This document shows positions 51,690 through 53,868 of a DNA stretch of 58,149 nucleotides, one piece after another. Numbering within the stretch: position 1 is the first letter of the stretch; the number at the start of each line of letters is the position of its first letter. A model generated the notes under the pieces. The model did no database searches, was not told where the DNA came from, and saw only the letters and a list, made by a program, of their open reading frames with translations. Source of the stretch: Alphaproteobacteria bacterium. Lineage in GTDB: Bacteria; Pseudomonadota; Alphaproteobacteria; CAAHEQ01; UBA3637. Location of the stretch: contig JAZOOQ010000014.1 of the NCBI GenBank assembly GCA_045655105.1, forward strand, positions 1 through 58,149, read 5' to 3'. A program made the position numbers and the translations under genes.

Positions 51690-52703
51690 CTATAACTCAG
51701 CAAAAACAGGGCCTGTTTTGCAAAGTTTTGAAAAAATTGGTTGTCTTAAATTCAATTTTTCAATAATTTCAGATGGTTTTAAATCAACAGAAATATTTTC
51801 AAGTTTAAAAATGCCATCTTTAACAGTTTTCACTAAAGCGCTTGGTAATTCTGCTTTTCCAATGCAAGAAGAAAGATAAACAAAACATTCATCATTATCT
51901 TTCAAATACTCTTTTGCCAATTTTCTGGCATATAAGTTAAGCGTTAAGTCAGCTTTGCTTGGATCTTTTGTCCATGGGCTTCCACCACCAATGGCACATG
52001 AAGTGGAATAAAAATCGCAAGCAAGTTTTCGCCCCGTAATACCACAATCGGCAATAGAGGAGTGATAAGTATAAGCGCCCGTTCCATTGATAATAAGTTG
52101 TTTTGGTGTTTGGCCAAGTGTTTCAATCACAAAGTTTGTTAAATCTTCATGCTCAATCATTGGAATGGCAACAATGGCTGTTAAAATCGTTTCATCTTCA
52201 TCCAAAGTGATTTGAGTTTTAATATCTAATCCCAAGTGTTTGGAATTTTTAGCTTTTTGATATAAGGCATTATTGAGCTTGCGTGCCAAAACCAAATCTT
52301 TTGGCATTAAGTCATCACCTTGCGATGCATAACCAACGAAAACGCCTTGATCGCCCCAACCATCTTGAGTCACGCCTTGTAAAATTTCGCTTGATTGAAT
52401 GCCAATTAAATCAATTACTTTTAACTTGTTGATATCAATGGCTTTTTCTTTCCAGATAGAAGCATATTCTTCATCATATCCAATTTCACGCAGCGCTTGT
52501 TTAACAATTTCATTTATATCATCAATTTTAATATAACCATTGACTTCGCCACCTAAAATAACGGTGTTATCTTTAATCATAACTTCAACGGCATATTTTA
52601 AAGAAGGGTCTTGTTGAATAAGCGTGTCAAGTAAATAAGAACTGATAAAATCGGCAACCTTATCTGGATGACCGATGGATACATATTCTGCAGTTTTAAG
52701 CAT
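51690..52703 (-). CDS. metK: S-adenosylmethionine synthetase, short divergent type
   Basis: GHPDKVAD, GWGDQG, DIKTQ, DCGITGRK, GGGSPWTKDPSKAD. Confidence 0.88.
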   Translation of the reverse strand: MLKTAEYVSIGHPDKVADFISSYLLDTLIQQDPSLKYAVEVMIKDNTVILGGEVNGYIKIDDINEIVKQALREIGYDEEYASIWKEKAIDINKLKVIDLIGIQSSEILQGVTQDGWGDQGVFVGYASQGDDLMPKDLVLARKLNNALYQKAKNSKHLGLDIKTQITLDEDETILTAIVAIPMIEHEDLTNFVIETLGQTPKQLIINGTGAYTYHSSIADCGITGRKLACDFYSTSCAIGGGSPWTKDPSKADLTLNLYARKLAKEYLKDNDECFVYLSSCIGKAELPSALVKTVKDGIFKLENISVDLKPSEIIEKLNLRQPIFSKLCKTGPVFAEL

Positions 52704-52709
52704 AAAAAA

Positions 52710-52750
52710 TCCTTTTTATTTATTGTTAACAAAACAATAGATTAAAAGGA
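52710..52750 (-). promoter_or_regulatory. Hairpin sequestering the metK SD, followed by U6 (terminator-like)
   Basis: mRNA UCCUUUU.AU.UAUUGUU-loop-AACAAUA.AU.AAAAGGA then UUUUUU-AUG; 16 of 18 stem positions pair. Confidence 0.65.
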
Positions 52751-52788
52751 AAGGAACAAAATATATCGAAATTTAAACGATTATACAT
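52726..52788 (-). CDS. Putative leader peptide (uORF), 20 aa, MYNRLNFDIFCSFPFNLLFC
   Basis: ATG 5 nt after the riboswitch AGGAGA; the stop falls at the apex of the hairpin that hides the metK SD. Confidence 0.55.
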   Translation of the reverse strand: MYNRLNFDIFCSFPFNLLFC

Positions 52789-52793
52789 TCGTT

Positions 52794-52860
52794 TCTCCTT
52801 TTAGTCCATTTAACCTTAAACCTTCTTACCTTGGACAAGTAGAGATAAATCCGATAAGAA
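52794..52860 (-). ncRNA. SAM-II/SAM-V-class riboswitch (H-type pseudoknot)
   Basis: P1 UUCUUAUC/GGUAAGAA; L1 GAUUUA; P2a UCUCU/GGAGA; P2b UUGUCCA/UGGAC-U-AA; L3 containing UAAAUG; 3' end CUAAAAGGAGA. Lies upstream of metK. Confidence 0.8.
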
Positions 52861-52868
52861 TTACCATC

Positions 52869-52897
52869 ATTATAAAAAAGATCATAAAAAAAATCAA
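52869..52897 (-). promoter_or_regulatory. Sigma70-type promoter of the metK leader
   Basis: TTGATT-N17-TATAAT, placing the start just before riboswitch P1. Confidence 0.75.
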
Positions 52898-52977
52898 TCT
52901 TTTTTTTGAAAAAACTTTGAATGATTATATGTTTTATGTTAAAATATTTATAAAAGAAGAAAGAAAAAGGGGGATTT

Positions 52978-53868
52978 ATGAGTTGGGATTTTAGTCATGA
53001 TGGGGTAAATCAACAGTTTGGTCGGCGACCAAGAAATGGCGGTGAATGGCATTATGGCAGGGATTATGGAACAAGAGGCAAAAAAGATGTTCCGTTAGGT
53101 GTTCCAAAATATTGCGATGGATGGATTTGCCATGTTATTGAAAATAATAAAATTGATGGGTTGGGAAATCAAGTTGTTTTGATTAGCCCAGATGGCAGTG
53201 AAATGGTTCGTTTTGGGCATGTTGCAACTGGATCAATGAAGCATTTAAAAACAGGGCAAATTGTGAATCATGGGGATTGGATTGGCAATATTGGGGGCGT
53301 TGGTTACACGGAAAATTCTTTTCAACCGCATATCCATGTTGAACATGGGATAAATCCACGGTATGAACTTGTTCAAACGAAACATAATGGTAAATATTAC
53401 CAGCATTACACATGGTTTTGTGGAGAACATACGATTGAAGATTATCGTGATCCACAAGCTGGCGCTTTGCCTTTTGAAGAGTTAGAAGAATTAACGAATA
53501 TGGCTTTTCAATCAAGAGAATTAACTTTATCAGGAAGAGGAAAACCCCCAAAAATGGCAAGTTCAATGCCTGTAGATATCGTGAAACAAGAAAATTCTTT
53601 TATCGAATGGTTTCGTTCCAGTTGGATTGGCAGATTGTTTTTTTCTGATAACGAGCAAGAGGAACCACAAAATGAATCTGAACCTAGAACAGGGCCAATT
53701 ATTCATCGAAAAACGCCTGTTCAAACAGAAGCGCAAACAACACCTGTAAGTCACACAAGGCAAACAAATGCCTCAGCTAGATTAGCAGAATGTAGTGAAC
53801 AACAAGATGTTTATAAAGAAGATGATATGACAAGACGTTATAGTAATCTTAGAAATACCAGGGATTGA
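52978..53868 (+). CDS. M23-family zinc peptidase domain protein with low-complexity C-terminal tail
   Basis: HYGRDYG (HxxxD), GLGNQV, FGHV, GQIVNHGDWIG, PHIHVE (HxH); no signal peptide seen. Confidence 0.8.
   Translation: MSWDFSHDGVNQQFGRRPRNGGEWHYGRDYGTRGKKDVPLGVPKYCDGWICHVIENNKIDGLGNQVVLISPDGSEMVRFGHVATGSMKHLKTGQIVNHGDWIGNIGGVGYTENSFQPHIHVEHGINPRYELVQTKHNGKYYQHYTWFCGEHTIEDYRDPQAGALPFEELEELTNMAFQSRELTLSGRGKPPKMASSMPVDIVKQENSFIEWFRSSWIGRLFFSDNEQEEPQNESEPRTGPIIHRKTPVQTEAQTTPVSHTRQTNASARLAECSEQQDVYKEDDMTRRYSNLRNTRD

Follow-up and report, generated by a model that had tools for sequence, protein, structure and literature searches.

We analysed the leader of metK, the S-adenosylmethionine (SAM) synthetase gene, in a contig of an alphaproteobacterial genome (Alphaproteobacteria bacterium, assembly GCA_045655105.1, contig JAZOOQ010000014.1); we call the whole stretch of 58,149 nucleotides (nt) the window. 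An initial annotation, made from the letters alone, had proposed that a SAM riboswitch controls metK through a short upstream open reading frame (uORF) and a hairpin that hides the Shine-Dalgarno (SD) sequence of the gene. When we re-read the sequence, every feature it described was present, on the minus strand, where it had been placed. The metK gene (51690..52703, minus strand, ATG at 52703) encodes a SAM synthetase of 337 amino acids (aa) that matched all three Pfam MetK domains, the central one in part (positions 3-72 of 120), and is the sole MetK match in the 1.58-Mb genome, compared to the two or three MetK paralogues of some relatives. The protein is short and divergent, with ~30-37% identity to the canonical MetK proteins of 390-430 aa in other families of the class.

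In the direction of transcription, the leader begins with a promoter-like site, TTGATT-17 nt-TATAAT (52897-52892 and 52874-52869, minus strand), which is a consensus match only, at 10/12 positions. The end of its -10 box lies 17 nt from the GAUUUA of the aptamer, an H-type pseudoknot at 52794..52860 (minus strand) that was recognised by a covariance model and by covariation in relatives. The aptamer ends in an SD sequence, SD1 (AGGAGA, 52799-52794), which supplies the 3′ strand of helix P2a and doubles as the SD of the uORF. This frame (52788-52726, 20 codons) opens with an ATG at 52788, 5 nt after SD1, crosses the anti-SD arm of the hairpin and closes with a TAA (52728-52726) in the hairpin loop, 22 nt before the metK AUG. 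Its frame differs from that of metK, and it ends at a separate stop codon. The anti-SD region, GUUCCUUUCCUUUUAAUCUAU (52737..52757), has alternative partners in the aptamer tail AUGGACUAAAAGGAG and the metK SD. The SD-hiding hairpin (52710-52750) is made of the 5′ arm UCCUUUU (52750-52744), the inner stem AUUGUU/AACAAU and the 3′ arm AAAAGGA (52716-52710), which is the metK SD; a U6 run (52709-52704) fills the space between this SD and the metK AUG. Thus, as first proposed, SD1 serves the uORF, whose ATG is 5 nt away, and not metK, which is 91 nt away.

Covariation supports an H-type pseudoknot in the metK leader

The P1 region of the aptamer spans 52860-52851 and 52834-52823, with UUCUUAUC (52860-52853) and GGUAAGAA (52830-52823) forming 8 base pairs (bp) in folds. 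P1 is followed by the loop L1, GAUUUA (52851-52846), and then by the P2a loop strand UCUCU (52845-52841), which pairs with the GGAGA of SD1. The word CUUGUCC (52839-52833) contains the P2b strand UUGUC(C) (52838-52833), which pairs with G(G)AC-U-AA inside 52807-52800. That 3′ segment, the tail word GGACUAAA, lies directly 5′ of SD1 and is separated from P1 by the L3 linker (52822-52808).

We built an alignment (A1) and a covariance model (R1) from 81 distinct relatives. One locus from Bdellovibrionota (L130) was excluded, as it lacks P1 and looks like a chance match. R1 matched the window at 52788-52860 with 49.2 bits (E = 1.3e-9), its sole match in the genome at E <= 0.01; at E <= 1, cmsearch added two weak window matches of 10.9 and 10.7 bits. 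Across the 81 sequences, 5/6 P1 pairs had changed on both sides. There were 76 double-changed cells, compared to 30.2 +/- 4.8 in shuffles; none of 500 shuffles scored as high, and the signal collapsed in slid controls. In the helix between the loop and the SD, columns 18-98 and 19-97 were paired in 81/81 sequences, using two pair types (CG:63/UA:18) and four pair types (UA:44/CG:28/AU:6/UG:3), respectively. The loop-tail register was constant across loop variants, as the register K=7 paired in 64% of cells, versus 54% and 44% in the neighbouring registers. In 14 sequences ascertained by the model, P2b was invariant, while three (L205, L206, and L210) had one substitution elsewhere in the core words. 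Since both P1 and the loop-SD helix covary, the comparative data indicate that the aptamer is a real H-type pseudoknot. The SAM-II/V-type pseudoknot of the initial annotation is therefore upheld by this covariation, together with core words common to both consensus sequences.

Two degenerate copies of the aptamer were also seen. One (L186:1501-1558) has GCCC for GUCC, without compensation, lacks a start codon and is 60 nt 5′ of an integrase-like open reading frame (ORF) of 409 aa. The other (L182:2189-2245), whose tail is mutated, precedes a 177-aa ORF; an intact copy follows ~690 nt further downstream.

The aptamer is a likely relative of SAM-V and SAM-II

At the gathering score, no Rfam family matched anywhere in the window. 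Neither of the two models to which the initial annotation's class assignment leads matched the leader: RF01826 (SAM-V, gathering cut-off 41 bits) gave no match there at the gathering score, at E <= 10 on the leader or at E <= 10 genome-wide, and RF00521 (SAM-II, SAM_alpha, gathering cut-off 36 bits) likewise left the leader unmatched at each of these settings. The sole RF00521 match on the window contig (C14:51696-51738, 11.1 bits) is inside metK. When six relative loci were compared with Rfam at E <= 1, the aptamer was likewise unmatched. RF00521 itself was found above its cut-off in 28/61 genomes of the class.

The resemblance to both classes becomes apparent on comparison by hand. Like SAM-V, the element is an H-type pseudoknot in which the P1 hairpin loop pairs with a 3′ tail that contains the SD. 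The SAM-V consensus is AUUUGAA-CUGUA-UUGUGC-GCC ... GCACUAAAAAGGAG and that of the family AUUUAAC-CUaAC-UUGUCC-caC ... GGACUAAAcAaGGAg; without gaps, the two run equally far from AUUU to the 3′ strand of P1, and 13/21 positions are identical by hand count. The SAM-V core words AUUU, UUGUGC, and GCACUAAA correspond, at equal spacing, to AUUU, UUGU.C, and G.ACUAAA in the family, and in both cases the tail word G.ACUAAA is followed by an A-rich spacer and GGAG. One P2b pair is flipped (GUGC/GCAC to GUCC/GGAC). Unlike SAM-V, the family has a different P1 sequence, and its L3 is short or carries a variable hairpin of its own. SAM-V is hosted by marine Pelagibacter-type bacteria, whereas the hosts of the family are metagenome-assembled genomes (MAGs) of gut and rumen Alphaproteobacteria, the controlled gene is metK, and 44/99 leaders place the aptamer at 83-128 nt from its start.

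The order of blocks is also that of SAM-II: P1, GAUUU, P2a strand, CUUG.C, P1 3′ strand, linker, G.CUAAA, and SD strand. Hand comparison with the SAM-II consensus found GAUUU, CUUGC, GCUAAA, and the SD strand in this order in the window leader, and the hosts belong to the same bacterial class. The family differs from SAM-II in having one extra P2b pair (GUC/GAC versus GC/GC, one extra base per strand) and a P2a of 3-5 bp on the SD itself in place of a GC-rich GGCCGG helix. Of the two consensus sequences, that of SAM-V is closer to the family. These comparisons suggest that the element is a divergent, uncatalogued relative of SAM-V/SAM-II; the class of the aptamer and an OFF logic are likely. 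Its ligand is probably SAM, judging from the resemblance and from how rarely the aptamer precedes a gene other than metK, and we consider it quite likely that the element is a SAM riboswitch.

Our literature searches, whose reach stopped short of supplements and subscription journals, returned no description of this aptamer, and the names "SAM-VII" and "SAM-VIII" were absent from the literature searched. A paper on spermidine riboswitches (PMC10853860) was set aside, since the part available concerns SAM-I variants. We also noted that another alphaproteobacterial genome (G078) has a SAM-I/IV match above the cut-off (L209:1501-1698, minus strand, 51.2 bits) that is followed directly by a SAM-V match of 39.6 bits, just under the cut-off of 41; the two look like a tandem.

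The aptamer is almost exclusively linked to metK in gut Alphaproteobacteria

The pattern GATTTA-N5-ACTTGTCC...GGACTAAA occurs upstream of 22/22 short-MetK loci of the window's family and in 4/7 paralogue leaders. When species-representative genomes were scanned with the pattern, at least 120 stretches matched; among the matches listed, 80 loci derive nearly all from MAGs of uncultured gut or rumen Alphaproteobacteria, some of them "Candidatus Enterousia". We examined 106 motif instances: 98 precede a MetK N-terminus, three precede a protein of 145-162 aa, and the remaining five run off the end of the locus or are the single chance match. R1 detected the aptamer in 43/80 genomes of the order, which is represented by a single family in this sample, and in 3/151 genomes taken class-wide, namely the window's own, one more of its family and one of a second family.

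The three proteins of 145-162 aa (MAG loci L103:3546-4034, L112:206-643, and L129:166-639, each with a compact aptamer before it) have motifs in common by eye, such as GGSPLSG. They had no Pfam match and no meaningful PHROG match, and may have a SAM-related function.

Promoter-like pairs recur at the same place in related leaders. A regular-expression search for TTGnnn-N16-17-TAnnnT found a pair in 19/22 leaders of the family, including 18/19 of the window's genus (g1); in 17 of these 18 the pair ends 12-17 nt 5′ of GATTTA, and in L006 the distance is 37 nt. A second promoter-like match in the window, TGGACT-N17-TATAAT (52780-52808, minus strand), lies over the aptamer tail and the first uORF codons. 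It is probably due to chance, since a 20-kb scan of this AT-rich DNA gave 65 such matches, no excess over the 73.7 +/- 7.6 of shuffles.

Some metK leaders carry further elements. One, which is conserved, consists of a TATAAT box followed directly by a CGGGA... hairpin and then by a G+C-rich stem with a U-run. It precedes MetK paralogues without the SAM-V-like aptamer (L051, L052, and L054), and also lies ~90-200 nt upstream of the compact aptamer in L019, L021, L053, and L055. This element had no meaningful Rfam match and may be a second regulatory RNA for metK. In addition, a hairpin of the form CCUCNUC-GGGU-GANGNGG occupies the 18 nt directly 5′ of P1 in five loci with compact aptamers (L019, L021, L022, L196, and L207); its stem differs between loci, while the GGGU loop is constant.

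Related leaders have three kinds of expression platform

The distance from the aptamer to the metK start is bimodal, with 55 leaders at 13-16 nt, 44 at 83-128 nt and none between. The 55 compact leaders have the classical arrangement, in which the SD of the aptamer is that of metK. The window leader, with SD1 at 91 nt, is of the extended form, which comprises three kinds. In the window clade (L001-L009, L083, and L208), SD1 is followed after 5-6 nt (10 nt in L009) by an ATG and then by the UCCUUUU...AAAAGGA hairpin. Other groups of the same genus (g1 groups B-D: L010-L020, L095, and L135) have a hairpin and U-run after the aptamer and retain the SD-hiding hairpin. The Enterousia-type clade (22 loci, 19 distinct leaders) again has SD1 and an ATG after 5-8 nt, but its SD-hiding hairpin is a different one, CCUUUGGUU...AACCAAAGG. 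One aptamer is thus combined, as far as sequence comparison tells, with three kinds of platform: the SD is occluded directly, or a hairpin and U-run follow, or a uORF leads into a hairpin that hides the SD.

To relate the platforms to descent, we placed them on a quick maximum-likelihood tree of MetK (84 rows, excluding proteins <300 aa and five identical duplicates). The two uORF clades are separate, with Shimodaira-Hasegawa-like approximate likelihood ratio test (SH-aLRT) values of 100 and 98. The window clade branches within the uORF-less leaders of its genus, and the Enterousia-type clade within compact leaders; the tree implies three label changes, versus a minimum of two. This topology suggests that the layout of uORF and SD-hiding hairpin arose twice separately, which is the strongest argument for a function of the uORF.

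The leader frame stays open while its peptide changes

In the window clade, all 11 leaders have the ATG, and the uORF has 20-21 codons in 9/11. Frame 0 is open to the hairpin arm in 9/10 leaders, versus 1/10 for each of the other frames. The two sub-clades (A1 and A2) read their shared nucleotides in different frames, yet have a common TAA end. Their peptides, MYNRLNFDIFCSFPFNLLFC in the window (20 aa) and MDDIIYQLKHLVSSFLIYCF in the other sub-clade, differ. The initial annotation had raised the possibility that Phe and Cys codons in the uORF provide a second input; as the peptide is not conserved, we rejected sensing through these codons, which are present because the sequence is U-rich. A metagenome scan for further window-clade leaders gave a single stretch (L208), and covariation within the clade was therefore not improved.

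The same picture was obtained in the Enterousia-type clade, where an ATG is present in 22/22 leaders and the frame is open through the 5′ arm of the hairpin in 21/22, compared to 8/22 for each other frame; in the exception, L136, it stops after 12 codons. Across the clade, each of the three frames is used over the conserved nucleotides of the hairpin. The uORFs end at +42 or +83 inside metK out of frame, in the hairpin loop, or 5 nt before the metK AUG, and in L089 and L108 the uORF is fused in frame to MetK. Selection, if any, would thus appear to favour the passage of ribosomes across this stretch, whatever the peptide.

The metK SD lies in a conserved hairpin with an alternative partner

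The hairpin at 52750-52710 has a folding energy of -11.8 kcal/mol (z = -3.41), and 2/200 shuffles folded as well. Its outer arms carry a compensated change between sister groups, as the U-A pair of UCCUUUU...AAAAGGA in the window clade is C-G (UCCUUUC...GAAAGGA) in g1 groups B-D. These results confirm that the metK SD is held in a conserved hairpin. Minimum-free-energy folds of the window leader also contained a relay helix between the free tail AUGGACUAAAAGGAG and the anti-SD region. With this helix, 52701-52812 folds at -23.5 kcal/mol (z = -3.57, with 0/200 shuffles as stable); the aptamer-sequestered state, which contains the SD hairpin, folds at -17.9 kcal/mol.

Natural variants of this region occur in public contigs from gut and bovine gut. 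Some have one extra U in the U-run (X1, X4, and X12), and an A-to-G change, as read on the RNA strand, occurs at 52717, within the 3′ half of the hairpin and next to the 5′ end of the metK SD arm; both kinds are likewise present in L002 and L004.

A model in which uORF translation opens the hairpin

A model that accommodates these observations is an OFF riboswitch on a SAM-V/SAM-II-like aptamer that controls metK from 91 nt away, via the uORF; from the comparative evidence, we consider this model about as probable as not. When SAM is bound, the tail GGACUAAA-AGGAGA would be locked in the pseudoknot and SD1 hidden, so that the leader ORF would not be translated. UCCUUUU would then pair with AAAAGGA, and metK would remain untranslated. 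When SAM is low, SD1 would be free, and a ribosome would start at the AUG 5 nt downstream and read 20 codons through the 5′ arm. It would stop in the hairpin loop, exposing the metK SD for translational coupling or reinitiation. The free tail could also pair with the anti-SD directly, through the relay helix, which would act in the same direction; translation of the uORF and the RNA relay may therefore act together.

Opening of the hairpin by uORF translation, as proposed in the initial annotation, is plausible, and for it, too, the comparative support leaves the scales about level. The recurrence of the layout in a second MetK clade, with its ATG and its open frame across three reading frames, speaks for this step. 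Within the window's own genus the picture is mixed: the alignment of relatives' leaders shows the open frame and the retained hairpin, but the position of the stop is not shared by all, and sister groups lack the uORF. A number of results weigh against the model. A uORF allele of only nine codons, which stops 7 nt 5′ of the anti-SD arm, is shared by L003 (MetK identity 96%), L208 and a contig from sequencing run X2. None of the 12 leaders examined from g1 groups B-D has a uORF that begins with ATG, yet they retain the SD-hiding hairpin; in L010, L012, and L013 a TTG opens only 3-4 codons, and a second TTG in L013, 12 nt after SD1, opens 22 codons. The Enterousia-type uORFs have no codon periodicity (0.75/0.84/0.83 bits by codon position), and the openness of the frame is therefore the only possible signal of translation. 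When the tail is free, the relay state is ~5.6 kcal/mol more stable than the hairpin state. As for the aptamer, P2b (UUGUC with GAC-U-AA) is invariant in the alignment, which was partly imposed by the search pattern and is uninformative, and Rfam returned only chance matches of microRNA and long noncoding RNA type on the leader (52600-53000, E <= 10).

The energetics, the 9-codon allele that persists in nature, the uORF-less groups and the lack of codon periodicity all favour the main rival, a relay through RNA alone. Here, without SAM, the free aptamer strand would pair with the anti-SD and so release the SD of metK; the uORF would persist as a tolerated side effect of an SD and AUG kept at the ancestral start position. 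In the window, the difference between -23.5 and -17.9 kcal/mol is energetically sufficient for such a relay. For Enterousia-type leaders a relay of another kind has good support, a helix of 9-14 bp between the P1 5′ strand AAGGUGGAUU and its reverse complement, a stretch that lies just 5′ of the anti-SD arm and overlaps it; the helix was found at -41 to -46 in 17/19 leaders, and in 12 of these 17 it was matched by at most 5/100 shuffles. In the window clade, however, the longest contiguous helix between aptamer and leader is no better than in shuffles (43-89 of 100), and the relay helix is absent from the minimum-free-energy folds of L005 and L009. The complementarity of SD1 to the anti-SD is not independent evidence, because SD1 and the metK SD are alike and the anti-SD must also pair with SD1. 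A relay of this kind also leaves unexplained the ATG in 33/33 uORF-type leaders and a frame 0 that is open through indels and frame changes. On balance we think it unlikely that RNA pairing alone operates the switch, although it comes closer than the other alternatives.

Those alternatives account for less of the data. If SD1 were a standby site, a 30S subunit recruited there would start on metK, at its distant AUG, and leave the uORF untranslated. The S. meliloti metA leader is a precedent of similar geometry according to the part of the report available (PMC9373788), at 91 nt here; metK, however, has a good SD of its own (AAAAGGA with a 6-nt spacer) that is hidden in a hairpin, the uORF, unlike the in-frame AUG1 and AUG2 of S. 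meliloti, is read in another frame than metK up to a stop of its own, and a standby site would not select for an open frame; we regard this explanation as improbable. Slightly less probable again is an attenuator, the role given to the hairpin in the initial annotation, in which 52750-52710 and U6 would form an intrinsic terminator blocked by uORF translation or by the relay helix. In its favour, U6-U8 follow the hairpin in all window-clade leaders, and this clade lacks the separate hairpin and U-run that groups B-D have between the aptamer and the SD hairpin; from a reading of the sequence, the L016 tail ACGGAG can pair with the 5′ base of that B-D hairpin stem. The terminator scan did not call the window hairpin, though, and its AU-rich stem has three G-C pairs and two internal loops, compared to five to six G-C pairs at top-ranked terminator-like sites of the window such as 39336-39312 and 51124-51098. 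The U-run is the spacer between SD and AUG, and it is absent from the other extended groups, with A-rich spacers instead in B-D. Moreover, termination at this site would leave metK expressible only via the same structural switch. We find the terminator role unsupported. Finally, the leader could respond to another ligand such as S-adenosylhomocysteine (SAH), bind a protein or be no riboswitch at all. The family matches no Rfam SAM family, three instances precede a protein other than MetK, and published abstracts, the part of that literature consulted, place a SAM/SAH class before metK as well. Against this stand the L1 U-run, the UUGU.C/G.ACUAAA words and the loop lengths common to the SAM-V consensus, a core that is nearly invariant even in model-ascertained sequences, and the almost exclusive tie to the SAM synthetase gene, and we regard such an explanation as very improbable.

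Precedents for control at a distance

The initial annotation had called the layout unknown for this class, which was too strong, as the available parts of two reports describe precedents, in S. meliloti metA (PMC9373788) and M. tuberculosis ppe2 (PMC11260477). For the SAM-II riboswitch of S. meliloti metA, that account has translation starting 74 nt downstream, with a terminator hairpin between; expression was abolished by mutation of the SD but not by a UAG in place of AUG1, and a standby site gated by the riboswitch was put forward by the authors. The likeness to the window, as far as that part of the paper goes, lies in the SD inside the aptamer with an AUG after it, in the hairpin with a U-run between, and in the distance to the start (74 versus 91 nt). 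In S. meliloti, AUG1 and AUG2 are described there as in frame, AUG1 as dispensable and AUG2 as lacking a working ribosome-binding site (RBS) of its own; in the window, by contrast, the uORF ends at a stop of its own in another frame than metK, whose strong SD is masked by the hairpin.

For the B12 riboswitch of M. tuberculosis ppe2, the available part of the second report states that PPE2 needs a riboswitch-controlled, translated leader and is made by termination-reinitiation (PMC11260477). On that account the shared feature is a riboswitch that gates translation of a uORF upstream of the main gene. The ligand and the aptamer class differ, and the sections consulted describe no SD-hiding hairpin; leader translation was demonstrated experimentally for ppe2, while in the window it is predicted. 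As in the ppe2 type, the RBS that the ligand would occlude belongs to the uORF and not to metK, and SD1 lies in a covarying helix. By analogy with these cases, the principle of a riboswitch-gated translated leader would not be new. The novelty appears to lie in the variant form of the aptamer, in its confinement to metK and to gut Alphaproteobacteria, in its use together with a hairpin that hides an SD, and in a layout that arose more than once.

Taken further, our comparisons suggest a broader reading, which we hold more tentatively than the model itself: that a ligand-gated SD was twice converted from the gene's own site to that of a leader ORF whose peptide is unconstrained and whose only job would be to drive a ribosome through an SD-masking hairpin.

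Significance

The family adds an uncatalogued branch to the SAM-II/SAM-V group of aptamers, one that is missed by pipelines based on Rfam. It also shows that a regulated gene does not necessarily begin at the SD and ATG beside an aptamer. The series of three platforms is a natural comparison for how a short translational pseudoknot switch could act at a distance, and bears on published cases that are mechanistically open, such as S. meliloti metA. In these small genomes, the aptamer probably controls the sole recognisable SAM synthetase. If the broader reading is true, the leader would represent a "translation-relay" platform, through which a translational pseudoknot switch acts ~100 nt away, and would offer a mechanistic reading of the "translation at a distance" in the S. 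meliloti metA SAM-II switch.

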